Part shown: positions 31,001-45,252 of the stretch, piece by piece
How the letters are laid out: the number at the start of each line of letters is the position of its first letter
Numbering within the stretch: the stretch's first letter is position 1
Assembly: GCA_963736545.1 (NCBI GenBank)
Contig: CAVTPA010000001.1
Span: 3,038,940-3,102,939 of the forward strand
Direction of reading: 5' to 3'
Length of the DNA stretch: 64,000 bases
Source of the DNA: an uncultured Chloroflexia bacterium
GTDB lineage: Bacteria > Chloroflexota > Limnocylindria > Limnocylindrales > CSP1-4
Made by a program: the position numbers and the translations under genes
Notes under the pieces: generated by a model
Database searches by the model: none
Told to the model about the DNA's origin: nothing
What the model saw: the letters and a program-made list of their open reading frames with translations, nothing else

Positions 31001-31859
31001 CCTCGGCCTGGCCCAGCTCTACCAGCTCCGGGGGCGTGTCGGACGGAGCAGCCGGCGCGCCTACGCCTACCTCCTGTACCGCCGGCGGGACCGCCTCTCC
31101 GACGAGGCGCGCAAGCGCCTGCAGGCGATCTTCAACGCGTCCGAGCTCGGCGCCGGCTTCCAGATCGCACTGGCCGATCTCGAGATCCGCGGGGCGGGGA
31201 ACATCCTCGGCGGCGAGCAGTCGGGGCACATGGCCGACGTCGGCTTCGACCTCTACACGCGCCTGCTCGCGGAGGCCGTCGAGGAGCGCAAGGCCAGCTA
31301 CGAGGGGCGCGAGCCGGTCCGCGTGGCGGCCGGCGCGACGGTGGACCTGCCCGTGGACGCGCACCTTCCCGACGAGTACGTCCCGGACGAGGCCCAGAAG
31401 CTCGAGCTGTACCGCCGGCTGGCGCGGGCCCGTACGGCGGGCGACGTTGCCGCCTTCCGCCAGGAGCTCGGCGATCGGTTCGGGCCGCTGCCGGCGCCGG
31501 TGCTCCGCCTCGTCGAGGTCGCCGAGCTGCGCCTCGCCGCCGAGGCCGCGGGGATCGCCTCGCTCGCCCGCGAGGAGGGCCAGCTCGTCGTGCGCTTCGC
31601 GTCCGGCCTTTCCCGCGGCGACGCGATGCGGCTCGTGGCCGGCGCCCCGCTGCCGGGCGTTCGTCCGGGCGACGTCACGTTCGCGGCGAGCCAGGTCCGG
31701 ATCCGCGCCCCCCGGGACCCCGCCCGGGCCTGGGCGCTGTCGCAGGCGCTCGTCGCCCGCGTCGCGACCGCCCGCGGGCCGGCCGGAGCGGGCCCGTCCG
31801 CGGCGGACGATCAGTCGTCCTCCGCGCCCCCGTCGTCGCCGCCGGCCGCGAACCGATAG
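28050..31859 (+). CDS. mfd: Transcription-repair coupling factor
   Basis: 1269 aa with a UvrB-homology N-terminus, an RNAP-interaction domain and a superfamily-2 helicase core (GDVGYGKTEVALRAAF, DEEQRFGV, QLRGRVGRS). It sits directly after pth, as in Firmicutes. Confidence 0.9.
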   Translation: MTGRSAAPPAAAPGTARRIPDLSALPPLLRETAAFARLADDLAVPPGTRARGRHAAVTAVPHGAKSFLVAALALGAGERICWIARDAEIGDRVAEELTAWLGDPAAVAVLEPRTALAYERSELIRDESAARVATLARWRSGRARVLVASVQALLQPTLPPDDLPERPRVLRRGDRVRQADLLAELLQLGHEPVVEVAGRGEMARRGGLVDVFPAGADLPVRIELFGDEVEEIRVFDPTDQRTIRAVEEVELLPASEFLVPAGGPAAIRERLGRLAGRLSERLAADLARLEGDPGAGPGAVAAGSSAAGARALDVGDAAEVWAAVLCPASGLDLVEPGTLLVVDEPGEVAAAAEFLWDQAAERRRDLVAAGDLPDAWPDAYLPPREWKARLLGARTLELGWEPGPVEAIGGGRALEDPFGWREPVLPPGRSAGLARAVERWRAGRPASVPLADEEAESPRPVLPPGAVARPGRGGARGSLRDAAPAPRIVLASDQAPRLAELLGDAGIPVGVTMRPGAPPPGAVALVGRSLNAGFAGGPDGLVVVTDRELFGNVRVRRPKALRRVVPRDILERLVPGDLVVHIDHGIARYEQMLRRGGAGEERDYLELSFAAGDRIYVPVEQIARVTRYAGAERPSLSRLGGGEWARTKTRVRRAVADLADDLLRLYAARAAATGHAFAPDTPWQRELEASFPYEETVDQLRAVDEVKSDMEATRPMDRIVVGDVGYGKTEVALRAAFKAIQDGRQVAVLVPTTVLADQHVRTLDQRFAAFPVTVRLMSRAVPAREQAATLAGLAAGTVDLVVGTHRLLSKDVRFRDLGLLVVDEEQRFGVAAKERLKQLRTEVDVLTLSATPIPRTLNLALVGVRDLSVIETPPEDRLPIQTRVAEASAGLVKDAILRELDRGGQVFFVHNRVETIEAQADQLRHLLPAARIVVGHGQMGENALEHVMRAFAAGEADVLVCTTIIESGLDIPNANTIVIDRADALGLAQLYQLRGRVGRSSRRAYAYLLYRRRDRLSDEARKRLQAIFNASELGAGFQIALADLEIRGAGNILGGEQSGHMADVGFDLYTRLLAEAVEERKASYEGREPVRVAAGATVDLPVDAHLPDEYVPDEAQKLELYRRLARARTAGDVAAFRQELGDRFGPLPAPVLRLVEVAELRLAAEAAGIASLAREEGQLVVRFASGLSRGDAMRLVAGAPLPGVRPGDVTFAASQVRIRAPRDPARAWALSQALVARVATARGPAGAGPSAADDQSSSAPPSSPPAANR

Positions 31860-32566
31860 CCGAGGCCGTACTGCGTCTCGATGAAGCGCCGCCCGGGGGC
31901 CGCGACGGCGAGCCGGGCCCGGACGTTGCGGATCGTCTCGCGCAGCAGGTGATGGTCGCCGGTGTACGCGGGGCCCCAGACCGTCGCCAGGAGCTCGCCG
32001 TGCTCGACGAGGACGCCCGGTTGCTCGGCCAGGTGGCGCAGCAGGCGGTACTCCGTCGGCGTGAGGTGCACCTCCCGGCCATCGATCTCGACGCGGTGGC
32101 GGGTGTCGTCGATCCGAAGGCCGGCCAGCTCGACGACCGGCTCGGCGGGCGCCGACGGCGCCGGCGGACGGGCCCGGCGGAGCGCCGCCGCGACCCGCGC
32201 CACCAGCTCGGGAAAGCTGAGGGGCTTCGTCACGTAGTCGTCCGCGCCGCTGGCGAGCCCCCGCACCTTGTCGGCCTCCGCCCCGAAGGCCGTGACGATG
32301 ATGATCGGCACGCTGCTCGACTCCCGGATCCGGCGAATGACGTGCCAGCCGTCCACCCGCGGGAGCCCGAGGTCGAGGACGATGAGGTCGGGGGGCTCGG
32401 CGTCGAAGGCGCGGATCGCGTGGGCCCCGTCGGGAGAGATCGACGGCTGCCAGCCGTGCCGTTCGAGCCAGAGCGCGATGAGCTCGGCGAACGCCGGCTC
32501 GTCCTCGACGACGAGGATCCGCTCGCCGCGGCCGGCGATCGGGCCGGGCGGCCGCGGACCGCTCAC
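31811..32566 (-). CDS. OmpR-family response regulator
   Basis: Receiver domain (ILVVEDEP...DLIVLDLGLP...TAFGAEADKV) and a winged-helix output (LTPTEYRLLRHLA...GLGYRF). Its GTG start overlaps the HK stop as GTGA. The 3' end overlaps convergent mfd by about 49 bp. Confidence 0.85.
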   Translation of the reverse strand: MSGPRPPGPIAGRGERILVVEDEPAFAELIALWLERHGWQPSISPDGAHAIRAFDAEPPDLIVLDLGLPRVDGWHVIRRIRESSSVPIIIVTAFGAEADKVRGLASGADDYVTKPLSFPELVARVAAALRRARPPAPSAPAEPVVELAGLRIDDTRHRVEIDGREVHLTPTEYRLLRHLAEQPGVLVEHGELLATVWGPAYTGDHHLLRETIRNVRARLAVAAPGRRFIETQYGLGYRFAAGGDDGGAEDD

Positions 32567-34338
32567 GGCCGCGCCTCCGAGCCGGTCGGGGTGAGGGCGC
32601 CGGCCGCGACGGGGAGCCCGACCGAGATCGAGGTGCCCCGCGTGGTCGCGTCGAGGCGGATCCAGCCGCCGTGCGCCTCGACGATCCGCCGGCAGAGGTA
32701 GAGGCCGAGGCCGCTGCCCGGCACGCCCGACTCGCGGACGCCGCGCCCCCGGAAGAACCGCTCGAACACGTGGTCGCGGTCCTCGGCCGCGATGCCCCGG
32801 CCGTCGTCGGCGACGGTGAGGACGACGGTCGCCTCGTCGAGGCGGCGTACCCGCATCTCGATCCGGGACGTGCGGCCGGCGTGCTTCTCGGCGTTCTCGA
32901 CGAGGTTCTGCACGACCTGGCGGATGCGTGACCCGTCGACGTCGACGCGGGGCAGCATGCGCGGCAGGTCGAGCGCCACGGGCCGGGCGTCGGGCCGCTC
33001 GGCCCGCTCCGCCAGGTAGGCCCGCAGGACGCCGTCGAGCGCGACCGGCGTCCGGCGGAGGACGAGGGCGTCGCTCTCGAGCTGCCCGACGTCGATGATC
33101 TCGTCGACCAGGCCGGCGAGCCGCCGGGCGGCCGCGGCAATCCGCTCGAGGTGTCGTCGCGCGGTCGTCGGATCGAGGTCGAGCTGGAGCAGGCTCTGGG
33201 TGTAGCCGTCGATGAGCGCGAGCGGCGTCCGCAGCTCGTGCGAGACGGCCGCGACGAAGCTCGCCTTCGCCGCCTCCAGCGATCGGGCGGGGCGCAGGTC
33301 GCGCAGGACGCCGACGGCCCCACCGTCGACGGCCGGCATCCGGGAGAAGCTCGCCGCGACCGGGATCCGGCCGCCGTCCCGATGGCGAACTTCGATCTCC
33401 CGCCCGACGATCGGGAGGCCGGACTCGAGGACCTCGCCGAACGGGCAGGCCTCGCCGCACAGGAGGAGGCCCGGCGCGTCGTCGACGCCGGCGGGAGTCC
33501 GGGCATGGGCCGCGTTTCGCCACGGGGGGCCGACGCCGTCAGGGCTCCCGGGCCCGCCCGGCCCCGGTTGTCCGCGGCCCGTGGCCACGCAGCCGAGGAA
33601 CGCTTCGCAGGGCATGCCGGCGGCCGCCCGCGCCGCGCCCCCGACGAGCGCCTCGGCGGCCGGGTTGAGGCGCACGATGCGGCGGCTCCCGTCCACCGCG
33701 ACGATCGCGTCGGTCGCGCCCTCGAGGATCGCGGCGAGGGTCGCCTGCTCGCGGGCGAGCCAGCCCCGGAGCTGGGCCGCCCGGAGCGTGACGGCGAGCT
33801 CCTGGCGGACGCTGGCGAGATACCGGACGTGGCCGGGGTCGAGCGTCCCCTCCGCCCGCACGGCCAGGAACCCGACGCCGCCGGCCGCGCCGACCGGCGA
33901 GGCCGGCCCGACGGAACGCCCCTCGGGGAGGGCCGTCCCGCTCCACCCGGCGGCCGTGGCCCAGGCCCGCGCGGCCCTGACGTCGACGAACGCCGGCGGA
34001 ACCGCCGGCCCGGGCTGAGGGGTGCTCCCGGCGTCGCCCGGGAACGTCGCCACGAGCTGGACGGTCGCGGCGCCCGGCTGCGCGAGCCAGAGCGCGGCGT
34101 CGACGGCGCCGACGGCCCGGGCGACCTCGGCGATCACGGCGCTCGCGATCTCGGCGACCGTGCCGCCGGCGGCGAGAAGCTGGCTGAGCTGGTACTGGGC
34201 GAAGACCGCGTCGGCCTCGTGCTGGGCGTCGGTGAAGACGCGATGGCGCTCGACCTCGAGCTCGCGGACGCGGGCCGCGAGGGCCGCGACCTGCGCCGCG
34301 AGCGCCTCCGCCCCCGGGTCGGCGGGCGGCGGCGTCAC
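32563..34338 (-). CDS. Cytoplasmic sensor histidine kinase with GAF-like and PAS-like sensory domains
   Basis: About 591 aa from GTG 34338. No TM segment is apparent. A GAF-like region (AEIASAVIAEVARAVGAVDAALWL) and a PAS-like region (LAAILEGATDAIVAVDGSRRIVRLNPAAEALVG) precede HisKA (AAVSHELRTPLALIDGY) and HATPase_c (NLVENAEKHA...DDGRGI...GSGLGL). The rest of ORF 32563..35055 is a spurious extension over the DhaL-like gene. Confidence 0.8.
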   Translation of the reverse strand: MTPPPADPGAEALAAQVAALAARVRELEVERHRVFTDAQHEADAVFAQYQLSQLLAAGGTVAEIASAVIAEVARAVGAVDAALWLAQPGAATVQLVATFPGDAGSTPQPGPAVPPAFVDVRAARAWATAAGWSGTALPEGRSVGPASPVGAAGGVGFLAVRAEGTLDPGHVRYLASVRQELAVTLRAAQLRGWLAREQATLAAILEGATDAIVAVDGSRRIVRLNPAAEALVGGAARAAAGMPCEAFLGCVATGRGQPGPGGPGSPDGVGPPWRNAAHARTPAGVDDAPGLLLCGEACPFGEVLESGLPIVGREIEVRHRDGGRIPVAASFSRMPAVDGGAVGVLRDLRPARSLEAAKASFVAAVSHELRTPLALIDGYTQSLLQLDLDPTTARRHLERIAAAARRLAGLVDEIIDVGQLESDALVLRRTPVALDGVLRAYLAERAERPDARPVALDLPRMLPRVDVDGSRIRQVVQNLVENAEKHAGRTSRIEMRVRRLDEATVVLTVADDGRGIAAEDRDHVFERFFRGRGVRESGVPGSGLGLYLCRRIVEAHGGWIRLDATTRGTSISVGLPVAAGALTPTGSEARP

Positions 34339-35048
34339 GGTCGCGCCTCGCCGTCGACGGCCCGCGCCATCGCCCCGAGCAGGAGGAAGCAGGAGGTTGC
34401 GCCGGGGTCGCGGTGGCCCCTCGAGCGTTCGCCGAGGCGAAGCGCGAGGCCGCGGCGGGCGACGAGCGGGATCGTCGACCGCATCCCGCTCCCGGCGGCG
34501 AGGGTGGCCGCGGCGAGGCAGTCGCCGAGCGGGCGGCCCGCTGCGGCGCCGGCCCGGAGAGCGGCGACGCCGGGAGCCAGGGCGTCGAGGATCGTCTTGT
34601 CGCCGACGGCGCACCGCCCACGGCGCTCCAGCCCTGCCCGGCCGGCCTCGAGCGCGGTCGCGAGGTCGACCGGCGTGGCCGCGTTCCGGCCCGCCAGGAC
34701 GAACCCGGCCTCGATGAACGCGGTCCCGTAGAGCGGGCCGCTTGCGCCGCCGACGCTCGCCACGAGCGAGTGGCCGAGGACCCGCAGCAGCTCTCCGACG
34801 TCCTCCGGGTGCTCGACGAGCCCGGTCCGGGCGGCCTCGGCGGCGGCCCTGAAGCCGATGGCCATGTTGGCCCCGTGGTCGCCGTCGCCGAGCGCCGCGT
34901 CCAGCCGGTCGAGGAGGGCCTCGTGGCGGTCGAGCGCGGCCACGGCGTGCTCGACGAAGCGGACCACGTCGCGGGCAGTGAGCGCGTCGTGGTCGACCGC
35001 GCCGGACGCGGCGCGCGGAGACTTCAGCGGGGGCCCTATCCTCTCCAT
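34335..35048 (-). CDS. DhaL-like (Dak2 domain, ADP-binding) protein translationally coupled to the histidine kinase
   Basis: 237 aa from ATG 35048. DhaL motifs are [32 protein letters not shown] and LGERSRGHRDPGA. Its TGA stop overlaps the HK GTG start as GTGA at 34335..34338. Confidence 0.75.
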   Translation of the reverse strand: MERIGPPLKSPRAASGAVDHDALTARDVVRFVEHAVAALDRHEALLDRLDAALGDGDHGANMAIGFRAAAEAARTGLVEHPEDVGELLRVLGHSLVASVGGASGPLYGTAFIEAGFVLAGRNAATPVDLATALEAGRAGLERRGRCAVGDKTILDALAPGVAALRAGAAAGRPLGDCLAAATLAAGSGMRSTIPLVARRGLALRLGERSRGHRDPGATSCFLLLGAMARAVDGEARP

Positions 35049-35121
35049 CGGCCACCGGAGTCTACGGCGGCCGCTGGGGCGGCGCGAGGTCGGCGCTCCG
35101 CGAGACGGACGGGAGGCGGCG

Positions 35122-35550
35122 ATGATCGCCCTGGCACTGGTGGGCCACAGCCCCGAGCTGTTGCGCGCGCTTCGGGCGATGCTTGCCCAGGCGGCGCCCG
35201 GCGTACCGGTCGCGACGGCCGGCGGATCGGCGGCCGGCTCGCTCGGCACCAGCAGCCCCGTGATCGAGGAGGCGCTCGCGGCCGCCATGGTCGCCAGCGA
35301 CGGCGCGGGCGTCGTCGTCCTGTTCGACCTCGGCAGCGCCGCGATGGCGCTCGAGATGGCGCTCGAGGCCCTGCCGGCGGCGGACCGCGACCGGGTTCGC
35401 GTCAGTCGAGGCCCGCTCGTCGAGGGGGCGGTCGCGGCTGCCGTCGAGGCCGCAGCCGGGGCGCCGCTCGACCGCGTGCTGGCGATCGCGGACGCGGAAC
35501 GGCTCACGGAGAAGCTGCCGGCCGACTGGCTCGCCGGGGCGAGCCGGTGA
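35122..35550 (+). CDS. DhaM-like phosphotransfer protein (PTS EIIA-mannose fold), paralog 2
   Basis: ATG 35122 with GGGAGG upstream. MIALALVGHSPELLRALRAMLAQAA with the conserved His of the EIIA-Man fold. About 40% identical to the second DhaM at 43452. The stop overlaps the downstream DhaL start as GTGA. Confidence 0.7.
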   Translation: MIALALVGHSPELLRALRAMLAQAAPGVPVATAGGSAAGSLGTSSPVIEEALAAAMVASDGAGVVVLFDLGSAAMALEMALEALPAADRDRVRVSRGPLVEGAVAAAVEAAAGAPLDRVLAIADAERLTEKLPADWLAGASR

Positions 35551-36191
35551 CGGAGGCGCTCCTCGTCCGCTGGCTGCGCACCGCGGCCGAGCGCGTCGCG
35601 GGAGCCCGCCTGCTCCTGACGGAGCTCGATGCGGCCATCGGGGACGGCGACCACGGGATCAACCTCGACCGCGGCTTTGCCGAGCTCGTGCGACGGCTCG
35701 ATGTCGGTGAGGTGCCTGACGCGCCGCCGGCGGCGACCCTGGAGGCGGCCGGCAGGACGATCATGGCCACCGTCGGCGGGGCCAGCGGCGCGCTGTACGG
35801 CCGGGCGCTCCAGCGTGCAGGGGCCGCCCTGATCGCTCCCGTCGCGACCGGGCCGGCGGCGCGCGAGGAGATTGCGGCAACGGCTCTCGCCGCGGCCGTC
35901 GCGGCGATCTCGGCGCTCGGCCGGGCGACGATCGGCGAGAAGACGATGCTTGACGCGCTCGTCCCGGCGCGGGACGCGTTCCAGGCTGCGGTGGCCTCCG
36001 GAGCGGACCTCGCCGCGGCCGCCGCGGCCGCCGCGGCGGCCGCCGACGCCGGCGCGGCGGGGACGGTCCCGCTCCTGGCCACGAAGGGCCGGGCGAGCTA
36101 CCTCGGCGAGCGCTCGATCGGGCACGTCGACCCGGGCGCCGTGTCGAGCGCCATCCTCCTCCGCGCGCTGGCCGACGTCGCCGCCGGCTGA
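35547..36191 (+). CDS. DhaL paralog 2 (Dak2 domain)
   Basis: GTG 35547. Motifs LDAAIGDGDHGINL, GGASGALYG, GEKTMLDAL and [19 protein letters not shown]. Confidence 0.8.
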   Translation: MTEALLVRWLRTAAERVAGARLLLTELDAAIGDGDHGINLDRGFAELVRRLDVGEVPDAPPAATLEAAGRTIMATVGGASGALYGRALQRAGAALIAPVATGPAAREEIAATALAAAVAAISALGRATIGEKTMLDALVPARDAFQAAVASGADLAAAAAAAAAAADAGAAGTVPLLATKGRASYLGERSIGHVDPGAVSSAILLRALADVAAG

Positions 36192-36505
36192 CTCCTCCCC
36201 GGCGCGCCACTCGAGCGGCCCGTCCTCACGAATCTGACAATGTCCTGACGATTCCCGGACGTGCCCGGTCGTAACCTTTCCGCAACGGTGCCGGCGGGCA
36301 CCGTGCGCCGACCGCGCCCAGACGGTCGCGCGGCCCGGGGCCGTGGCCGCGACATGACGGGAGGGACGCAACCCGAGCAGATCGTGCTGTGCCCTACCCG
36401 GCGAGCCCGAACCGGGTGCTCGCTCGCCGGATCTCGGTTCGATCGGCGACGCGGCGTCGCCCTCCGCGCGATTGGCGCGTTTCCTTCATCCCAGAGGGAG
36501 AGAGC

Positions 36506-37270
36506 ATGGAACTCAACATCTTCATGTCCGAGGTCTTCGGCACAATGCTGCTGATCCTCCTCGGCGATGGCGTGGTCGCGGGCGTCCTGCTCGCGAAGTC
36601 GAAGGCCAACGCCTCCGGCTGGATCGTCATCACGATGGCATGGGCCTTCGCGGTGTTCACCGGCGTCGTGGTCGCCGGCGGCGTCGGCGGCGACCTGGTG
36701 TACGGCAACGCGCACCTGAACCCGGCCGTCACGCTCGGCATCTTCGTGAACGCGGCCGTCAGCGGCGGCACCGTCGACGTGGTTGCGATGTTCATCTACA
36801 TCGCCGGCCAGTTCGTCGGCGCGTTCATCGGCGCGACCCTCGTGTTCCTCCACTACTACCCGCACTGGGCGGAGACCGAGGATCCCGGGCTCAAGCTGGC
36901 CGTCTTCTCGACCGCTCCGGCGATTCGCAACGTGACCTGGAACTTCGTCTCCGAGGTCATCGGCACCTTCGTCCTCGTCTTCGTGGTTCTCGCGTTCGGC
37001 AACAACGCGGGCCTCTCCGGCCTCGGCCCCCTGTCGGTCGCCCTGCTGGTCCTCGTGATCGGCCTCGCCCTCGGCGGCACGACCGGGTACGCGATCAACC
37101 CCGCCCGCGACCTCGGGCCGCGGATCATCCACGCGATCATGCCGATCCCGGGCAAGGGAGGCTCCGACTGGGAGTACTCCTGGATCCCGGTTGTCGGCCC
37201 GCTCACCGGCGGCGTCGTCGCTGCCCTCGTGTACCAGTTCATCTTCGTGACGACGGTCGTCCCGGCCTGA
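36506..37270 (+). CDS. glpF: Glycerol uptake facilitator (aquaglyceroporin)
   Basis: Six TM segments and two NPA boxes (HLNPAVT, INPARD). SD GGGAGAG upstream. Confidence 0.9.
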   Translation: MELNIFMSEVFGTMLLILLGDGVVAGVLLAKSKANASGWIVITMAWAFAVFTGVVVAGGVGGDLVYGNAHLNPAVTLGIFVNAAVSGGTVDVVAMFIYIAGQFVGAFIGATLVFLHYYPHWAETEDPGLKLAVFSTAPAIRNVTWNFVSEVIGTFVLVFVVLAFGNNAGLSGLGPLSVALLVLVIGLALGGTTGYAINPARDLGPRIIHAIMPIPGKGGSDWEYSWIPVVGPLTGGVVAALVYQFIFVTTVVPA

Positions 37271-37387: not shown

Positions 37388-38386
37388 ATGAAGAAGCTCA
37401 TCAACGCTCCCGACGCGGTCGTCGACGACTCGCTCGCCGGCGTCGTCGCGGCCCACGGTGACCTGGTCAAGGTCATCGAGCCGAACGTCGTCGTGCGCGT
37501 CGACGCCCCGAAGTCGGGCAAGGTCGGCGTGATCTCCGGCGGCGGCAGCGGCCACGAGCCGATGCACGGCGGATTCGTCGGGATGGGCATGCTCGACGCT
37601 GCCTGCCCCGGCGCGGTCTTCACCTCGCCGGTGCCGGACCAGATGCTCGCCGCGACCAAGGCGGTCGACGGCGGCGCCGGCGTCCTGCACATCGTCAAGA
37701 ACTACACCGGCGACATCATGAACTTCGAGCTCGCGGCCGAGATGGCCCGGGCGGAGGGGATCGAGGTCACCAGCGTCGTCATCGCCGACGACGTCGCGGT
37801 CAAGGACTCGCTCTACACCGCGGGCCGCCGCGGCGTCGGCGGGACCGTCCTCGCCGAGAAGATCGTCGGCGCCGCCGCCGAGGCGGGGGCCGACCTCGCC
37901 ACGGTCACGGCGCTCTGCCAGAAGGTCCAGGACAACGTCCGCTCGATGGGCATGGCGCTCACGAGCTGCACGGTCCCGGCCGCCGGCAAGCCGACCTTCG
38001 ACATCGGCGACGACGAGATGGAGATCGGCGTCGGCATCCACGGGGAGCCGGGCCGCACGCGGATGAAGGTCGCCACGGCGGCCGAGGTCACCGCGATGCT
38101 CGCCACGCCGATCCTCGACGACCTGCCGTTCCAGGCCGGGGACAAGGTCCTCGCCTTCGTGAACGGGATGGGCGGGACGCCGCTCATCGAGCTTTACGTG
38201 ATCTTCAACGAGCTCAAGAAGATCCTCGACGCTCGCGGGATCACGATCGCCCGCAACCTCGTCGGCAGCTACATCACCTCGCTCGAGATGGCGGGCTGCT
38301 CGATCACCCTCCTGCGCCTCGACGACGAGCTGACGAAGTACTGGGATGCCCCGGTGCTGACGCCCGGCCTTCGCTGGGGCCTGTGA
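37388..38386 (+). CDS. dhaK: Dihydroxyacetone kinase, DHA-binding subunit
   Basis: [26 protein letters not shown]...[15 protein letters not shown], with the DHA-binding His in GHEP. Confidence 0.9.
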
Positions 38387-38441: not shown

Positions 38442-39074
38442 ATGATCTCGCACGACGATGTCATTGCCTGGGTTCGCCGGTTCGCCGCCGTGGTGGCGGA
38501 GAACAAGACGTACCTCACGGAGCTCGATTCCGCGATCGGCGACGCCGACCACGGGATCAACATGGACCGCGGCTTCACCGCCGTGGCCGGCAAGCTCGAC
38601 GGTCTCGTCGGCCCTGACATCGGGGCGACGCTGAAGACGGTCGGCACGACGCTCGTCTCGACGGTCGGCGGCGCCAGCGGGCCGCTCTACGGGATGTTCT
38701 TCATGCAGATGGGAGGGGCCGCGGCCGGCAAGGAGTCCCTCGACGCGCAGGAGTTCGCCACGGCCTTCGAGGCCGGTGTCGGCGGGGTCCTCCGCATCGG
38801 GAAGGCCGAGCTCGGCGACAAGACGATGGTCGATGCCCTCCTGCCCGCGCGCGATGCGCTGCAGGCCGCGATCGCCGACGGGGCTTCCGCCGGGGACGCG
38901 GTCCAGCGGATGGCGAACGCGGCGGAGGAGGGCATGCTCGCCACGGTGCCGCTCGTCGCCCGCAAGGGCCGGGCGAGCTACCTCGGCGAGCGGTCGGCCG
39001 GGCACCAGGACCCGGGCGCGACGTCCACCCATCTGCTGCTGCGGTCCGCCGCAGAGGCATTCGCCGGGCGCTAG
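38442..39074 (+). CDS. dhaL: Dihydroxyacetone kinase, ADP-binding subunit
   Basis: [51 protein letters not shown]. Confidence 0.9.
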
Positions 39075-39112: not shown

Positions 39113-40609
39113 ATGACGAAGTACGTGGGGGCCCTCGACCAGGGGACCACGAGCACCCGCTTCATGATCTTCGACCACGCCGGCCTGCCGGTGGCGATCG
39201 ACCAGATGGAGCACGAGCAGATCTTCCCGAAGCCGGGTTGGGTCGAGCACGACCCGATGGAGATCTGGGCCCGCAGCCAGGACGTCATCAAGGGCGCCCT
39301 CGCCAAGGCCGGCCTCACCGCCGCGGACCTCGCCGCGGTCGGCGTCACCAACCAGCGCGAGACGACGGTCGTCTGGGACAAGCGCACCGGCAAGCCGGTC
39401 TACAACGCCATCGTCTGGCAGGACACCCGGACCAAGGACATCTGCGACGAGCTCGAGAAGGACGGCGGCCCGGATCGTCTCCGCCCGAAGACCGGCCTGC
39501 CGCTGGCGACCTACTTCTCCGGCCCGAAGGCCAAGTGGGTCCTCGACAACGTCGCCGGCGCGCGCGCCGACGCCGAGGCGGGGCACCTCCTGTTCGGCAA
39601 CATCGACACCTGGTGCATCTGGAACCTGACCGGCGGCGTCAACGGCGGCGTCCACGTCACCGACGTGTCCAATGCCAGCCGCACGCTCATGTTCAACTAC
39701 ACGACGCTCGCGTGGGATCCCGAGATCACAGCGCTTCTCGGCGTCCCGGCGTCGATGCTGCCGGCCGTCAAGGCCTCGTCCGCGGTCTACGGCACGTGCG
39801 TCGGCGACCTCGCCGGCGTCCCGGTCGCGGGCGACCTGGGCGACCAGCAGGCCGCCCTCTTCGGCCAGACCTGCTTCTCGCCCGGCGAGGCGAAGAACAC
39901 GTACGGCACGGGCTGCTTCATGCTCCTCAACACGGGCACGAAGGCAGTCCCGAGCAAGAGCGGCCTCCTGACGACGTTGGCGTACAAGATCGGCGACCAG
40001 CCGGCCGTGTACGCGCTCGAGGGCTCGATCGCCATCACGGGCGCCCTCGTGCAGTGGGTCCGCGACAACCTCCAGATGATCGAGAAGTCGCCCGACATCG
40101 AGGCCCTCGCGGCCTCCGTCGAGGACAACGGCGGCGTCTACTTCGTCCCGGCGTTCTCCGGCCTCTTCGCGCCGTACTGGAAGAACGACGCTCGCGGCGT
40201 GATCGCGGGCCTCACCCGGTACGTCACCAAGGCCCACATCGCACGGGCCGTCCTCGAGGCCACCGCCTGGCAGACCCGCGAGGTCCTGGACGCGATGAAC
40301 GCCGACTCCGGCGTTCCGCTGACGGCCCTCAAGGTCGACGGTGGCATGGTCTTCAACAACCTCCTCATGCAGTTCCAGTCCGACGTCCTGAAGGTTCCGG
40401 TCATCCGGCCGAAGGTCGCCGAGACGACGGCCCTCGGGGCGGCCTACGCGGCCGGCCTGGCGGTCGGGTACTGGGGCGAGGTCGAGGACCTGCGCGCGAA
40501 CTGGGCGAAGGACCACGAGTGGCATCCGACGATGGATCCCGCGAAGGTCGACGCCGAGTACGCGCAGTGGAAGAAGGCCGTCACCCGCACGTTCGGCTGG
40601 GTCGACTGA
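39113..40609 (+). CDS. glpK: Glycerol kinase
   Basis: 498 aa with the FGGY kinase signature ([16 protein letters not shown]...[11 protein letters not shown]...[18 protein letters not shown]). Confidence 0.95.
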
Positions 40610-40679: not shown

Positions 40680-41867
40680 ATGACCATCCCCCGACTTCCC
40701 CGGCAGCCCTTCCACGTCGTCATCGTCGGCGGTGGCGGGACCGGCGGCGCCCTCGCCCATGACCTGATCCTCCGAGGGTTCCGCGTGACCCTCGTCGAGC
40801 GCGGCGAGCTCACCTCCGGGACCACCGGCCGCCACCACGGCCTCCTCCACTCGGGCGCCCGCTACGCCGTCAAGGACCAGGAGTCGGCCGTCGAGTGCAT
40901 CGAGGAGCGCCGGATCCTCGGGAAGGTCTGCCCCGGCTCGTTCGAGGAGAACGACGGCCTGTTCGTCGCGATCACCGACGAGGACGTCGCCTACGAGCCG
41001 ATGTTCTACGAGGCCTGCCTGGCCAGCGGGATCCCGGCTCGCCGGGTGACCCGCGAGGAGGCGCTCCGCCTGGAGCCGCACCTCAACCCCGACCTCAAGA
41101 TGGCGGTCCAGATCCCCGATGCGACGATGGACGCCATGCGGATGCCCCTCCGCTTCTTCGCGACCGCGAAGGCCGGAGGCGCGGTCATCCGTCCCTGGAC
41201 CCTCGTCACCGAGCTGCTGGTCGCCGACCGCCTCGTGACCGGGATCCGCGTCCGCGATCTCACGAACGGCGTCGAGGAGGAGATCCACGGCGATCTCGTC
41301 GTCAACGCGACGGGACCCTGGGCCGAGCAGATCGCCGTCATGGCCGGCTGCGACGTCCCGATCCGCCCCTCGCCGGGCGTGATCCTCGCCGTCCGCGGCC
41401 GCTGGTGCAACATGGTCATCAACCACCTCCACGCGTCCGGCGACGGCGACATCATCGTTCCCCAGCGCGGCCTCTCGGTCGTCGGCACGAGCTCCTGGGT
41501 CGTGGAGGATCCCGACGACCTCGGGGTCCCCGAGGACCACGTCGAGCGGATGTACGTCGAGGGCTCGAAGATGATCCCCGCGATCCGGACCGCGGAGCGT
41601 CGAGCAGCCTGGTCGGCGGCCCGCCCGCTGATCGGCTCGCGCGACGCGGACTCCGGGCGCGAGCTGAGCCGGACGTTCAAGTGCTTCGACCATCGCGAGA
41701 CGGACGGCGTCGAGGGGTTCGTCACGATCTCCGGCGGCAAGGGCACGACGCTCCGGGCGATGGCCGAGACGACCGCCGACGTCATCTGCCGGAAGGTTGG
41801 CGTCGAGGCGCCCTGCCAGACCCGGGAGGTCGTGACCCTTCCGCACGGCGCCTACTACGCGGCGTAG
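40680..41867 (+). CDS. glpA: FAD-dependent glycerol-3-phosphate dehydrogenase flavoprotein (GlpA-like, short form)
   Basis: FAD fold VVIVGGGGTGGALAHDL and the GlpA/GlpD signature SGTTGRHHGLLHSGARYAVKDQESAVECIEE. Confidence 0.8.
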   Translation: MTIPRLPRQPFHVVIVGGGGTGGALAHDLILRGFRVTLVERGELTSGTTGRHHGLLHSGARYAVKDQESAVECIEERRILGKVCPGSFEENDGLFVAITDEDVAYEPMFYEACLASGIPARRVTREEALRLEPHLNPDLKMAVQIPDATMDAMRMPLRFFATAKAGGAVIRPWTLVTELLVADRLVTGIRVRDLTNGVEEEIHGDLVVNATGPWAEQIAVMAGCDVPIRPSPGVILAVRGRWCNMVINHLHASGDGDIIVPQRGLSVVGTSSWVVEDPDDLGVPEDHVERMYVEGSKMIPAIRTAERRAAWSAARPLIGSRDADSGRELSRTFKCFDHRETDGVEGFVTISGGKGTTLRAMAETTADVICRKVGVEAPCQTREVVTLPHGAYYAA

Positions 41868-41877
41868 GAGCAGAGCC

Positions 41878-42624
41878 ATGACAGCACCTGCCGCCGAGCA
41901 GCGCACCGTCCGGGTCAGCGTCTCCCGCCGCAAGGAGGGCGACGACCCGGCGGAGCAGCGCTACGACACCTTCGACGTCGCCGTCGGCCCGAGCGCGATG
42001 ATCCTCGACGCGCTCGTCGCCATTCGTCGCCAGCAGGACGCCACGCTCGCGTTCCGCCACTCCTGCTTCCACGCCTCCTGCGGGACCTGCGGGATGCGGG
42101 TCAACGGCCGCGAGGGCCTCGCCTGCGTGACGCCCGTCCCCGCCGGCGACGAGGTGGTCGTCGAGCCGCTCGCCAACATCCCGGTGGTCTCGGACCTCGT
42201 CGTCGACATGAACGTCTTCTACGACGAGTTCGACGAGGCCGGACGCCCGCTCGTCCGTGCCGACGACCTCATCCCCGAGTGCGAGCCGGCCGAGGGGATC
42301 GACCAGCTCGAGCGGTACGAGGACTGCATCGAGTGCGGGATCTGCGTGTCCGCCTGCCCGGTGGCCGGCAGCGACCCGCGCTACGTCGGGCCGGCCGCCC
42401 TCGCGGCAGCCTCGCGTCTCCTCGACGAGCCGCGCGGGCGCGATCCCGGCCCGGTCCTGCGGCTGATGGACAGCGAGCAGGCCGCGTGGCGCTGCCACCT
42501 GGCGTGGGAATGCTCCGAGGCGTGCCCGTCGGGCGTGGACCCGGCCGGCGCGATCATGCGGCTCCGGCGAGCGGCTGTCGCGGCGCGCGCTCGTCGCCTC
42601 TTCTCGTTCGGAGGATCCCGCTGA
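41878..42624 (+). CDS. Succinate-dehydrogenase/fumarate-reductase-type iron-sulfur subunit (SdhB-like)
   Basis: A 2Fe-2S ferredoxin-like N-domain (CFHASCGTCGMRVNG...ACV) and two 4Fe-4S dicluster motifs (CIECGICVSACP; CHLAWECSEACP). The stop overlaps the next start as TGATG. Confidence 0.8.
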   Translation: MTAPAAEQRTVRVSVSRRKEGDDPAEQRYDTFDVAVGPSAMILDALVAIRRQQDATLAFRHSCFHASCGTCGMRVNGREGLACVTPVPAGDEVVVEPLANIPVVSDLVVDMNVFYDEFDEAGRPLVRADDLIPECEPAEGIDQLERYEDCIECGICVSACPVAGSDPRYVGPAALAAASRLLDEPRGRDPGPVLRLMDSEQAAWRCHLAWECSEACPSGVDPAGAIMRLRRAAVAARARRLFSFGGSR

Positions 42625-43046
42625 TGGCCACCACGACCGTCCAGCCCCCGCGGCCGGAGACCGGGCCGGCCCAGCGCCGGGGGATCATCGGCTGGTTCGA
42701 CCCGCGCGGCCGGCGCCTCGGGGGCCTTGCCTTCATCCTCAACCGGCTGAGCGGGATCGGCCTCGCCGTCTACCTGTACCTGCACCTCGGCATCCTGTCG
42801 CTCCTGGCCACGGGACCCGATGCCTGGGACACGTTCGTCGACATCGCCCTGAGCCCCCCGGTCCTCGTGCTGGACGTGGTCCTCCTGGCCGGCATGCTGT
42901 TCCACGGGCTGAACGGGATCCGCGTCGGCCTGGTCGGGATGGGCCTGGTGGTGAGCCGCCAGCGCGCGCTCGTCATCGCCGCGGTCGTCATCGCCGGCTT
43001 CGTCACCTTCGTCGGCGCGCTCCGCATCTTCGGCGGGGAGGGGTAG
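42624..43046 (+). CDS. Membrane anchor cytochrome b subunit (SdhC-like)
   Basis: 140 aa with three TM helices and conserved His residues (HLGILSLL, FHGLNG). Confidence 0.7.
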   Translation: MATTTVQPPRPETGPAQRRGIIGWFDPRGRRLGGLAFILNRLSGIGLAVYLYLHLGILSLLATGPDAWDTFVDIALSPPVLVLDVVLLAGMLFHGLNGIRVGLVGMGLVVSRQRALVIAAVVIAGFVTFVGALRIFGGEG

Positions 43047-43054
43047 GAGAAGCC

Positions 43055-43441
43055 ATGACCACCGAACAGCGGGCGCTCGAGCGCCCGGCCGCGGGCTCGC
43101 GCGGCATCCCTGCCTTCGTCGGCCAGGTCCTGAGCGGCGTGGTGCTGCTGGTGCTCCTCACGCTGCACATGGTCGCCCAGCACTTCGTGGTGCCGACCGG
43201 GCTGCGCTATTACGAGGACGTCATCGACTGGCTGAGCAACCCGGTCGTGGTCGCGGTCGAGGTCCTCTTCCTGACGTTCGTCACGTACCACGCCCTGCTG
43301 GGCATGCGGGCGATCCTCTTCGACTTCGGCTTCTCGGAGAGGACCGAGCGCCGCCTGACCGCCATCTTCGTCGTCGTCGGGATCGCCACCGTGGTGTACG
43401 GCGTGGCGCTCCTCGCGGCGATCATCAACAACGCGCAGTAG
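43055..43441 (+). CDS. Membrane anchor subunit (SdhD-like)
   Basis: 128 aa with three TM helices and a His in the first TM (LTLHMVAQHF). Confidence 0.65.
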   Translation: MTTEQRALERPAAGSRGIPAFVGQVLSGVVLLVLLTLHMVAQHFVVPTGLRYYEDVIDWLSNPVVVAVEVLFLTFVTYHALLGMRAILFDFGFSERTERRLTAIFVVVGIATVVYGVALLAAIINNAQ

Positions 43442-43451
43442 GATCCTGGCC

Positions 43452-43859
43452 ATGGAGCCGCTCGTCGGGATCGTCGTCGTCAGCCACTCCGCCCAGATCG
43501 CCGCCGGGACGGTCGAGCTCGCCCGCCAGATGGCGGGTCCAGACCTGCGGATCGAGGGCGCCGGCGGCATCGCGGACGGCTCGCTCGGCACGGATGCGGC
43601 CGCGATCATGACCGCCATCGAGACGGCCGACACGGGCGCCGGGGTCCTCGTCCTCGTCGACCTTGGCAGCGCCGTGCTCGCAACGCAGACGGCCCTCGAG
43701 CTCCTCGGCGAGGACGTGGCCGCTCACGTCCGGCTGTCCGGCGGGCCGCTCGTCGAGGGCGCGGTCGTCGCGGCCCTGCAGGCGAGCATCGGGGATGCGC
43801 TCGACGCCGTCCATGCGGCGGCGGAGGGCGCGGCGAGCCTGCCGAAGCTTCCGGAGTGA
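43452..43859 (+). CDS. dhaM: Dihydroxyacetone kinase phosphotransfer subunit (EIIA-Man fold only)
   Basis: MEPLVGIVVVSHSAQIAAGTVELARQMAG, with the phosphorylatable His in VSHS. The stop overlaps the next start as GTGA. Confidence 0.8.
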   Translation: MEPLVGIVVVSHSAQIAAGTVELARQMAGPDLRIEGAGGIADGSLGTDAAAIMTAIETADTGAGVLVLVDLGSAVLATQTALELLGEDVAAHVRLSGGPLVEGAVVAALQASIGDALDAVHAAAEGAASLPKLPE

Positions 43860-44953
43860 GCGCAGTCGCGGACGCCGCCGCGGACGTCGCGACGGCCCCG
43901 CGGCGCGTCGCCGTCGTCGGTGCGGGGGCCGTCGGCACGCTGCTCGGCGGGCTCCTCGCGGCGGCCGGCGCCGATGTCACGCTCGTCGATGCCCGCGTCT
44001 CGGCGGACGCCTCCGCCGACGTGTCCATCCACGAACCGGGAGGCCGCGAGGTGGTTGCCCGGGTCCGCCGCGCCACGCACCTCGCCGACGTCGCCGGCGA
44101 CCCCGACCTCGTGGTCCTCGCCGTCAAGATGTTCGACCTGGCGGGGGCTCTCGACGACCTCGTCGCCTGGCCGAACGCAACCCTCCTCACGATCCAGAAC
44201 GGGATCGGCGCGGAGGAGCTCGTGGCCTCGGCACGGCCCGGGGCGGGCCTCGTCGCCGGGTCGCTGACCTCGCCCGTGGAGCGGCCCGGCCCCGCCGAGG
44301 TCCGCTGGCGCGGCCGCGGCGGCATCGCCCTCGCGGTTGCCGCCGGGGACGCCGCCGCCGACGCCGACTGGCTGGCAGCCGCGTTCGCGACGGCCGGCCT
44401 GCCCTCGCGGCGCCTCGACGACCCGCGGGCGATGAAGTGGTCGAAGCTCGTCGGCAACCTCGTCGGCAACGCGCTGAGCGCGCTGGCGGACCGTGAGCCG
44501 GCGGCCGTCTACGCCGACCCCGTCCTCTTCGACCTCGAGCGTCGGCAGCTCGCGGAGACCCTGGCCGTCATGCGGGCCGCCCGGATCCCGGTGGTCGCCC
44601 TCCCGGGCGCCGACGTGCGCCTCCTCGCCCTCGCGATCCGGCTGCCGGCTCCGCTGTCGCGGGCCGTGCTCCGGCGAGTCGTCGGCGGCGCGCGCGGCGG
44701 CAAGTCGCCGTCCCTGCGGCTGCATCTCCAATCGGCGGAGGGCCCGACCGAGGCCGCCTGGCTGAACGGCGCGGTGGCCCGCGCCGGTGCCGTGGCCGGC
44801 GTGCCGACGCCCGTGAACGCCGCCCTTGCCCGTCTGCTCGACGCGGTCGTCGGCGATCCCGAGCTGCGCGACGAGCTCGCGGCGCGGCCCCACCGGATCG
44901 CCGAGATCGTCGCCGCCGAACCGCCAACCCACGTCCCGAGCCGCGGCCCCTAA
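43856..44953 (+). CDS. Ketopantoate-reductase (ApbA/PanE) family NAD(P)-dependent oxidoreductase
   Basis: Rossmann motif VAVVGAGAVGTLLGGLLAAAG, then LAVKMFDL and a KPR C-terminal domain. Embedded between dhaM and ptsH. Confidence 0.75.
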   Translation: MSAVADAAADVATAPRRVAVVGAGAVGTLLGGLLAAAGADVTLVDARVSADASADVSIHEPGGREVVARVRRATHLADVAGDPDLVVLAVKMFDLAGALDDLVAWPNATLLTIQNGIGAEELVASARPGAGLVAGSLTSPVERPGPAEVRWRGRGGIALAVAAGDAAADADWLAAAFATAGLPSRRLDDPRAMKWSKLVGNLVGNALSALADREPAAVYADPVLFDLERRQLAETLAVMRAARIPVVALPGADVRLLALAIRLPAPLSRAVLRRVVGGARGGKSPSLRLHLQSAEGPTEAAWLNGAVARAGAVAGVPTPVNAALARLLDAVVGDPELRDELAARPHRIAEIVAAEPPTHVPSRGP

Positions 44954-44967
44954 CGGAGGACCTCCAG

Positions 44968-45252
44968 ATGCGCACCCTCGAGATCGAGATCCGCAACCCG
45001 TCCGGCATCCACCTCCGTCCCGCAGGGACCTTCGTGAAGGGGGCCGCCGCCTACCGCTCCGCGATCACCCTCGAGAACGTGACTCGCGGCGGCAAGGCGG
45101 TCAACGCGAAGGACGCCCTGGCGGTCCTCTCGTACGGCAAGGCGGCTCGCGGCGACACGGTCCGGATCGTCGCCGACGGGGAGGACGAGGACGTCGCGAT
45201 CGATGGGCTCCGGGAGCTCATCGAGAGCGGGCTCGGGGAGTCGCTGGAGTGA
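44968..45252 (+). CDS. ptsH: Phosphocarrier protein HPr
   Basis: 94 aa (EIRNPSGIHLRPAGTFV; His15 region). The stop overlaps the ptsI start as GTGA. Confidence 0.85.
   Translation: MRTLEIEIRNPSGIHLRPAGTFVKGAAAYRSAITLENVTRGGKAVNAKDALAVLSYGKAARGDTVRIVADGEDEDVAIDGLRELIESGLGESLE

Follow-up and report, generated by a model that had tools for sequence, protein, structure and literature searches.

Why does a gene for a dihydroxyacetone kinase subunit open a two-component operon, and does its product take part in what the kinase senses? The question is raised by a locus in a 64,000-nucleotide stretch of DNA from an uncultured Chloroflexia bacterium of the Limnocylindrales, lineage CSP1-4 (assembly GCA_963736545.1, contig CAVTPA010000001.1, positions 3,038,940 to 3,102,939), which is called the window below. 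On its minus strand, dhaL3, which encodes a diverged paralog of the dihydroxyacetone (DHA) kinase subunit DhaL, is followed by the genes of a cytoplasmic sensor histidine kinase and of an OmpR/PhoB-type response regulator, and is divergent from a second pair of DHA kinase genes, dhaM2-dhaL2 (Table 1). The initial annotation of the window proposed that the sensory logic of the Escherichia coli regulator DhaR is transferred here to a histidine kinase. The analysis presented here finds that dhaL3-kinase-regulator is a conserved unit, and the reading that fits the whole of the evidence best, for which the probability is judged a little above even, is that DhaL3 serves the kinase as a dedicated protein co-sensor whose signal is its nucleotide state.

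A conserved and translationally coupled dhaL3-kinase-regulator unit

The G+C content of the region is 76-80%, and for this reason long open reading frames (ORFs) occur in every frame. The coding frame of each segment was read from a plot of G+C at third codon positions (GC3), which gives the same frames as the earlier gene calls; translations and domain matches agree with the plot for all five genes of the locus, and the protein motifs quoted in the initial annotation, including GERSRGHRDPGA, are all present in the translations. Public gene calls contain identical DhaL3 and kinase products of 237 and 591 residues. The reported start/stop overlaps are also found, since dhaL3 and the kinase gene share GTGA at 34335..34338 and the kinase and regulator genes share GTGA at 32563..32566, and dhaM2 and dhaL2 are likewise joined (GTGA, 35547..35550). 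The dhaM2-dhaL2 pair begins, as described before, 73 bp from dhaL3 (spacer 35049..35121). A complete set for phosphotransferase system (PTS)-dependent DHA phosphorylation, formed by DhaK, DhaL1, DhaM1, HPr and enzyme I (EI), is encoded in the window, and dhaM2, dhaL2 and dhaL3 are supernumerary because this canonical set, including dhaM1-ptsH-ptsI, lies downstream of them.

Relatives of the kinase number in the hundreds, and the named ones come from metagenome-assembled genomes (MAGs) of Chloroflexota or Candidatus Limnocylindrales. A scan with one genome per species, based on an alignment of the sensor domain, gave 78 loci, all from Limnocylindria within the Chloroflexota, onto which the window proteins were mapped by tblastn. 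DhaL3 is encoded directly upstream of the kinase in 69 of the 71 loci whose upstream sequence extends to 750 bp or more, and the regulator follows the kinase in all loci with enough flank (73/73); this synteny persists down to 38% kinase identity. In about 59 of 73 loci dhaL3 and the kinase gene overlap, by 4 nt (NTGA) or by 1 nt (TGATG), and the loci that lack the overlap are visibly frameshifted long-read assemblies. One exception to the arrangement, L063, is a heavily frameshifted locus. Recurrence in relatives was one of the checks that the initial annotation had named for its proposal, and it establishes dhaL3-kinase-regulator as a conserved, translationally coupled unit rather than a chance juxtaposition. 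As far as sequences can speak for function, the comparative evidence that DhaL3 and the kinase work as a unit is strong.

In all loci examined the module is located beside dha/PTS genes. The most distant loci (L061, L064, L066 and L069) have dhaL3-kinase-regulator divergent from a complete dhaM-ptsH-glpF-dhaK-dhaL operon, with DhaL3 as the sole extra paralog, a layout that parallels the location of dhaR beside the dha kinase genes. Because these four loci show exactly this layout, a minimal design can be defined as dhaL3-kinase-regulator divergent from the dha operon, and this design is probably ancestral. Gene order depends on the clade, and the clade of the window has the dhaM2-dhaL2 overlap and a separate glpF-dhaK-dhaL1 block, while a third dhaL is found in L074 and L075 in convergent orientation after the regulator gene. 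This variation suggests a history in which a second dha block came in and the original dhaK was lost by deletion.

The operon also has a conserved promoter-like element. The sequence GCCGCCGTAGACTC..ATG is invariant in 16 close relatives, and most loci of all three clades have TA(G/C)ACT, which resembles a -10 hexamer, 10-12 nt ahead of the start codon of dhaL3; the ATG start itself is conserved. Since this hexamer lies so near the ATG, the operon mRNA that starts at dhaL3 is probably leaderless or near-leaderless. No Shine-Dalgarno sequence is present before dhaL3, and clear GGAG-type ribosome-binding sites precede dhaM2 and glpF.

DhaL3, DhaM2 and the sensor region of the kinase

DhaL3 matches the Dak2 model PF02734 (1e-44, profile positions 2-173 of 174) and the DhaL model TIGR02365 (167.9 bits, cutoff 138.3), and aligns to E. 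coli DhaL (3PNL/4LRZ) at 1e-33, which agrees with the earlier assignment of this ORF to the Dak2 fold. In a comparison of 184 Dak2 sequences, which are 181 sequences from the loci and the three DhaLs of the window, DhaL3 forms its own cluster, with a mean identity of 65% within the cluster and of 42-46% to DhaL1 and DhaL2. All three proteins keep D50, D55, D57, H58, the GGASG segment (G100-G104), T152 and D155, and GERSxGHxDPG (G206-G216) is common to them. In E. coli DhaL the Asp triad D30/D35/D37 binds the two Mg ions of ADP (PMC9136124, PMC10848957), and D50/D55/D57 are the counterpart of this triad. Judged by these residues, the Mg/ADP-binding side chains and the nucleotide pocket are retained in DhaL3.

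The segment A-x-K-G-R-A-S-Y, which is a signature of catalytic DhaLs, is replaced in DhaL3. ARRGLALR occupies this place in 59 of 66 DhaL3 orthologs, whereas A[RT]KGRASY is kept by DhaL1, DhaL2 and the DhaL proteins of E. coli (ARKGRASY) and Lactococcus lactis (ATKGRASY). Because K-G-R-A-S-Y is lost, DhaL3 may no longer exchange phosphate with DhaK, a functional meaning that we infer from the comparison with catalytic DhaLs. Residues that are invariant in the DhaL3 clade and found only there are mostly charged (R41, D47, R48, R89, H93, E113, R143 and R210), and two cysteines, C146 and C220, are also clade-specific; the pattern indicates that DhaL3 is under purifying selection with invariant residues of its own. 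dhaL3 never adjoins dhaK, and the sole dhaK precedes dhaL1. These comparisons support the view of DhaL3 as a diverged, lineage-specific paralog rather than a spare catalytic subunit.

The distribution of the altered motif was surveyed by an exhaustive HMMER search of 1.84 billion protein cluster representatives, from which the best 150 clusters were inspected. RGLA(L/M)R is present in 5 of the 150 best clusters, and the Arg of G-R-A is near-universal otherwise. The long matches are DhaL-DhaM(-HPr-EI) fusions, and none of them is a fusion to a kinase. Genomic context was obtained for three of the five RGLA(L/M)R clusters, and in each of them the next gene, which overlaps the DhaL3-type gene by 4 nt or follows it after 10 nt, encodes a kinase with FAQYQLSQLL. 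A divergent EIIA-Man gene is present in one of the three as well. DhaL3-type proteins and this kinase family co-occur wherever the context could be retrieved. Two proteins, P0063 (L014, 822 aa, Dak2 plus kinase) and P0122 (627 aa), were considered as natural DhaL-kinase fusions of the Rosetta stone type and were rejected as frameshift artefacts of long-read MAGs, as they are translated in the wrong frame near the end of Dak2 and attest adjacency only. The frameshifts are single-base events near the 3' end of dhaL3, and such public calls can be mistaken for fusions.

The arrangement could also be inherited synteny without functional coupling, which would follow if, in the common ancestor of the class, a dhaL duplicate had happened to come to lie before a two-component operon with which it had nothing to do, and the confinement of all 78 loci to one class is in its favor. 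This origin of the module is nevertheless extremely improbable: the gene order has been kept down to protein identities of 38-50%, the overlap of stop and start codons has been preserved or re-created in two forms (NTGA and TGATG), the selection on DhaL3 and its clade-specific invariant residues speak for a function, and the conserved -10 element lies directly before dhaL3 and not before the kinase gene.

The kinase matches the Pfam models HisKA (3e-15), HATPase_c (6e-28) and, weakly, PAS (8.5e-5), and its translation contains the H-box SHELRTP and the N, G1, F and G2 boxes NLVENAEKH, DDGRGI, FERFFRG and GSGLGL. The regulator has the receiver signatures LIVLDLGLP, IIIVTA and VTKPL, followed by Trans_reg_C. 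By these sequence features the two proteins form a classical HisKA/OmpR-PhoB two-component system. The kinase was described as free of transmembrane segments, and the highest Kyte-Doolittle value of any 19-mer is 1.6, which belongs to an Ala-rich helix of the GAF-like domain. The description of its N-terminal region as GAF plus PAS holds at the level of the fold and less well at the level of profiles, since no GAF match is found with Pfam and the PAS match is the weak one given above; for lack of a Pfam GAF match the GAF-like fold was established by modelling. An AlphaFold model of residues 1-357, built from an alignment of 13 diverse orthologs (mean predicted local distance difference test score, pLDDT, 82.8), begins with a long helix (residues 8-56), which is followed by a small alpha/beta GAF-like domain (residues 61-165), a long linker helix (residues 168-207) and a PAS domain that is broken by a disordered loop of low pLDDT (residues 254-289). 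In the model the sensor part of the kinase, which is cytoplasmic, is built of a GAF-like domain, a helix and a PAS domain. The invariant FAQYQLSQLLA closes the first helix and is a candidate docking or dimerisation surface. The best structural matches of the sensor over two domains include the N-terminal domain of DhaR, DhaR(N), and with it the entry of the DhaR(N)-DhaL complex (4LRZ).

The PAS domain has a second feature that could serve in sensing. Four cysteines, with the spacing C-x5-C ... C-x3-C-P-F, are invariant across the 13 diverse orthologs, in which the intervening loop is of variable length, and they are located at the usual cofactor position of PAS domains (Ealpha/Falpha). They are a candidate metal (Zn) or Fe-S site and may be a second, redox- or metal-dependent input of the kinase; a distant homolog (L079) has three of the four. 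An alternative reading follows from this site, in which the kinase senses through its own PAS domain, with Zn or an Fe-S cluster on the four cysteines reporting redox state, O2 or metal, and DhaL3 is merely co-expressed as a metabolic subunit or output, for example as an alternative ADP-carrying partner of DhaK or as a buffer of phosphorylated DhaM (DhaM~P). The invariant cysteines that bracket the variable loop, the retention of all nucleotide-binding residues in DhaL3 and the downstream operon are compatible with it; because a dehydrogenase linked to respiration, with FeS subunits and subunits of the cytochrome-b type, is encoded there, a redox input would be physiologically sensible. The reading is nonetheless unlikely. 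It does not account for the absence from DhaL3 of K-G-R-A-S-Y, which every catalytic DhaL compared has kept, for the position of dhaL3 as the first gene with its stop overlapping the kinase start in nearly all genomes, or for the finding of DhaL3-type proteins solely next to this kinase family in the contexts retrieved; two canonical DhaLs are already present, and the distant family member L079 has three of the cysteines.

The divergent pair was called dhaM-dhaL in the initial annotation, and the domain matches bear this out. DhaM2 matches EIIA-man (5e-15), and its TIGR02364 score of 88.9 bits lies below the cutoff of 98.25; it is 42% identical to DhaM1, and its phospho-accepting His9 is invariant in 61 of 61 orthologs. 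DhaL2, which keeps the catalytic K-G-R-A-S-Y, is encoded in most loci, and the stop of dhaM2 and the start of dhaL2 overlap as NTGA in 29 of 56. The percent identities of DhaM2, DhaL2, DhaL3, kinase and regulator to the window proteins co-vary (Spearman 0.77-0.93), as do those of DhaK and DhaL1 (0.89), while the co-variation between the regulatory five and DhaK/DhaL1 is weaker (0.53-0.65). This hints at one common history for the five genes on the regulatory side and at another for the catalytic pair, by a measure that is confounded by phylogeny.

The intact DhaM2 bears on a further alternative, which is that DhaL3 is a co-sensor of energy charge and not of PTS or DHA state. DhaL3 would then exchange ADP and ATP freely, independently of DhaM, in the manner of PII or CBS proteins, which presumes a remodelled cap or partner-binding surface. 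The nucleotide pocket is retained next to a conserved motif that is changed, as this alternative would have it, and freely nucleotide-exchanging, ATP-dependent Dak2 domains exist (PMC9136124). It is judged quite unlikely in view of a DhaM paralog whose phospho-His is intact, which is conserved opposite dhaL3 at nearly every locus and whose identity values follow those of DhaL3, and of the constant location of the module beside dha/PTS genes.

DhaL3 as a proposed co-sensor of the kinase

In the preferred reading, the three genes would form one near-leaderless and translationally coupled operon for a two-component system of the cytoplasm that brings its own accessory sensor protein. DhaL3 would still bind Mg-ADP or Mg-ATP, having lost the motif common to catalytic DhaLs, and would dock on the helix/GAF-like/PAS sensor at the N-terminus of the kinase as E. 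coli DhaL docks on the GAF-PAS region of DhaR (4LRZ), so that ADP or ATP on DhaL3 would toggle the kinase between its kinase and phosphatase modes. The nucleotide state of DhaL3 would be set by phosphorylated DhaM (DhaM2 and/or DhaM1), which would be charged from phosphoenolpyruvate (PEP) through EI and HPr; the proteins of this supply chain for phosphoryl groups are encoded in the same cluster. The nucleotide state would be drained by DHA phosphorylation, directly or by competition for DhaM~P. The OmpR-type regulator would then adjust transcription of dhaM2-dhaL2 and of glpF-dhaK-dhaL1-glpK, the canonical catabolic genes, which are its presumed target. Among these steps, we infer the binding of DhaL3 to the sensor, the nucleotide state that activates, the phosphotransfer from DhaM to DhaL3 and the target promoters of the regulator.

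Several observations weigh against DhaL3 as the co-sensor. The conservation evidence is drawn from one class, so part of the synteny could be inheritance, and one locus, L055, has kinase and regulator with no Dak2 gene adjoining. The loss of K-G-R-A-S-Y may mean that DhaL3 exchanges phosphate with neither DhaK nor DhaM, which would break an E. coli-like logic, and the PAS cysteines could be the real sensor of the kinase. The tandem-PAS sensors FixL and DosP score equal to DhaR in structural matching, DhaR is absent from the top 60 matches of the isolated GAF-like domain, which are generic GAF domains, and the match of the sensor profile to the DhaR sequence is not significant (E 0.24). The isolated GAF-like domain thus proves generic; the modelled architecture resembles DhaR(N) overall, a likeness that may not be specific to DhaR. 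In the DNA, the 73-bp divergent spacer has no clear repeat and is poorly conserved beyond the -10 element, and the candidate regulator box upstream of the glpF leader, which is conserved in two clades, is a weak one.

A more far-reaching form of the proposal, considered very unlikely when taken as a whole, is that the PTS is wired directly into His-Asp signalling by a Dak2 protein, with PEP, EI, HPr and DhaM2 turning DhaL3-ADP into DhaL3-ATP and this state being passed to the kinase. In its extreme form the ATP bound to DhaL3 would be the phosphodonor or the gatekeeper for autophosphorylation of the kinase. The Cys4 PAS site would be a further input, of redox state or metal, and the kinase would have two inputs and would integrate carbon-phosphotransfer flux with respiratory state.

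DhaR of E. coli is activated by DhaL and repressed by DhaK, depending on the nucleotide load of DhaL, and it is a protein of the bacterial enhancer-binding family that acts at a sigma-70 promoter (PMC10084136), so the description of DhaR as a sigma-54 activator in the initial annotation needs correction. The DhaR circuit and the window locus have in common a nucleotide-binding DHA kinase subunit as the ligand, here a proposed one, of a cytoplasmic sensing module that is GAF-PAS in DhaR and modelled as GAF-like plus PAS in the window kinase, regulator genes that are divergent from or next to dha genes, and a PTS (EI, HPr and DhaM) that sets the nucleotide state of DhaL, which for the window is part of the proposal. 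They differ in the output, which is a HisKA/HATPase kinase with an OmpR regulator here and a one-component AAA+/helix-turn-helix activator in E. coli, and in the co-sensor, which is a dedicated diverged paralog (RGLALR) here and catalytic DhaL itself there; the window has no antagonist paralog of DhaK and has the extra DhaM2-DhaL2 pair. In L. lactis, the DhaK paralog DhaQ is the co-sensor of the TetR-type regulator DhaS (PMC7590123). DhaQ and DhaL3 are alike as dedicated paralogs of a DHA kinase subunit that are non-catalytic, presumably so in the case of DhaL3, that are encoded with a regulator and that act, or in the case of DhaL3 are proposed to act, as co-sensors. DhaQ is a DhaK paralog that binds DHA and has a TetR partner, whereas DhaL3 is a DhaL paralog of the nucleotide-binding type with a histidine kinase as its proposed partner.

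Small soluble proteins that report metabolic state and shift the balance between the kinase and phosphatase activities of a histidine kinase are known from PII with NtrB and from EIIA-Ntr (PtsN) with KdpD and PhoR, and in the case of PtsN the signal comes from the PTS phosphorelay. To our knowledge, neither PII nor PtsN has the Dak2 fold, and the gene of neither is joined by overlapping codons to that of its kinase in an operon. FixL, which carries heme, and NreB, which carries a [4Fe-4S] cluster, are cofactor-bearing PAS kinases. The window kinase resembles FixL as a cytoplasmic PAS-HisKA kinase whose PAS domain aligns to that of FixL, and it resembles NreB in having four conserved cysteines in the PAS core, although the Cys spacing of NreB is presumably different from C-x5-C ... 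C-x3-C split by a loop of 20-45 residues. We know of no partner protein of the DhaL3 type for FixL or NreB. Full-text literature searches returned no two-component system that uses DhaL or Dak2 and no Dak2-fold partner of a kinase, in line with the initial annotation, which was aware of none, and no DhaL-linked two-component system is mentioned in a survey of dha regulons by genomic context.

DHA kinase subunits or their paralogs as transcription co-factors, and soluble accessory proteins that control histidine kinases, are both already known; what appears to be new is that the two are combined here, together with a diverged DhaL3 clade that is linked exclusively to one kinase family. If the proposal is true, the locus is a third wiring after DhaR-DhaL/DhaK and DhaS-DhaQ and extends the "trigger enzyme" logic to three unrelated output devices, Dak2 becomes a new fold among the few soluble accessory proteins known to control histidine kinases, and the PTS and two-component signalling are connected at the protein level in a second way. 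Limnocylindria are abundant soil and freshwater Chloroflexota, and because they are uncultured a glycerol/DHA regulatory module is a rare testable handle on their physiology. The hypothesis is directly testable in vitro, since it involves only small, soluble components, namely the five proteins together with EI and HPr.

The glpF leader, candidate regulator sites and the surrounding genes

The glycerol/DHA cluster was placed about 300 bp beyond dhaL2, and the exact non-coding gap between the dhaL2 stop and the glpF ATG is 315 bp. In clade 1, GACAATGTCCTGACG is conserved at about -280 in this gap, and the analogous GACGTTTCCTTGACG is found in clade 2 at about -218. The spacing of its units, 11 nt, is that expected for regulators of the OmpR/PhoB type. 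A search of the window with a degenerate pattern of the box, one base off, gave 73 matches from GAC-rich coding DNA and is uninformative.

Downstream of this candidate box, glpF has a conserved 5' leader, which is single-copy, upstream of glpF every time, and present at the same position in L001-L017, L033, L039, L073 and L076. Its mean pairwise nucleotide identity is 0.90 (20 sequences), compared with 0.805 for the glpF coding sequence and 0.71-0.80 for the regulatory genes, and its conservation is on par with that of the best-conserved coding genes. The RNAalifold consensus is a GC-rich fold with 67 pairs, of which very few are broken and 2 are fully compensated; compensated pairs are so few because the leader hardly varies. 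A terminator-like hairpin (36465..36479), which is followed by TTTCCTTC and lies 27 nt before the glpF ATG, is the only terminator-like site in 31600..36600, and an internal GGGAGGGA echoes the ribosome-binding site. The clade-2 leader is shorter and divergent and shares the covarying first (5') hairpin. No Rfam match is found for the glpF leader or the divergent spacer, and a sub-threshold match to sul1 at 35218..35238 lies inside the dhaM2 coding sequence and was dismissed as chance.

Terminators in the leaders of glpFK and glpD are controlled by the GlpP antiterminator in Bacillus subtilis. The window leader is similar to these as the long leader of a glycerol-uptake operon with a terminator-like hairpin just before the ribosome-binding site, and differs in that it has no sequence relationship to them. 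It is a candidate for a new riboswitch or attenuator of the glycerol/DHA operon, and its conservation and predicted fold suggest that the catabolic operon is probably controlled also by attenuation through some ligand or protein. With a leader of the attenuation type, a model in which the two-component system alone controls the catabolic operon is incomplete.

Table 1. Positions of genes, protein segments and nucleic acid elements in the window
Feature	Position	Strand	Description
OmpR/PhoB-type response regulator gene	31811..32566	-	251 aa; Response_reg 2e-26, Trans_reg_C 3e-17
Sensor histidine kinase gene	32563..34338	-	591 aa, cytoplasmic
PAS domain	33298..33717	-	kinase residues about 208-347; AlphaFold model
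Four-Cys site C244, C250, C294, C298-P-F	33445..33609	-	inside PAS, flanks the variable disordered loop
Small GAF-like alpha/beta domain	33841..34170	-	kinase residues about 57-166; AlphaFold model
Invariant FAQYQLSQLLA	34171..34203	-	kinase residues 46-56, end of first helix; alignment of orthologs
dhaL3	34335..35048	-	237-aa diverged DhaL (Dak2) paralog, first gene of the operon
R-G-L-A-L-R motif	34437..34454	-	DhaL3 residues 199-204, in place of canonical K-G-R-A-S-Y
TAGACT, -10-like hexamer	35059..35064	-	10 nt before the dhaL3 ATG
dhaM2	35122..35550	+	single-domain EIIA-Man-type DhaM paralog, divergent from dhaL3
dhaL2	35547..36191	+	second extra DhaL; Dak2 1e-47, TIGR02365 199 bits
GACAATGTCCTGACG	36236..36250	+	pair of GAC(A/G) units at 11-nt spacing, before the glpF leader; candidate regulator box
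glpF 5' leader	36281..36505	+	225 nt, conserved, probably structured
glpF	36506..37270	+	Pfam MIP
dhaK	37388..38386	+	Pfam Dak1 3e-134
dhaL1	38442..39074	+	Pfam Dak2
glpK	39113..40609	+	Pfam FGGY
dhaM1	43452..43859	+	EIIA-man 1.6e-28; tblastn
ApbA-like reductase gene	43856..44953	+	between dhaM1 and ptsH
ptsH	44968..45252	+	PTS-HPr 9e-23
ptsI	about 45276..47051	+	PEP-utilizers N, mobile and C domains

From glpF onwards, the plus-strand cluster encodes in order DhaK, DhaL1, GlpK, a DAO-family flavoprotein, an SdhB-like FeS protein and two Sdh_cyt subunits, and it continues with dhaM1, the ApbA-like reductase gene, ptsH, ptsI and plsY. At the other end of the locus, the regulator gene, which ends at 31811, converges with a plus-strand mfd (TRCF) ORF that ends at 31859, a called overlap of 49 bp, and no terminator-like site was found between the two genes. 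The ApbA/PanE-type gene overlaps the dhaM1 stop and encodes an NAD(P) oxidoreductase similar to ketopantoate reductase, which may be a glycerol- or DHA-related reductase. The genes at 40680..43441 (plus strand) encode a GlpD-like DAO flavoprotein, the SdhB-like 2Fe-2S/4Fe-4S protein and the two Sdh_cyt membrane subunits; the set looks like a four-subunit complex of the succinate dehydrogenase style in which the DAO flavoprotein replaces SdhA, and it is presumably a variant of glycerol-3-phosphate:quinone oxidoreductase. The GlpD-like gene is merely 37-40% identical in some relatives, which suggests that it was replaced in them.

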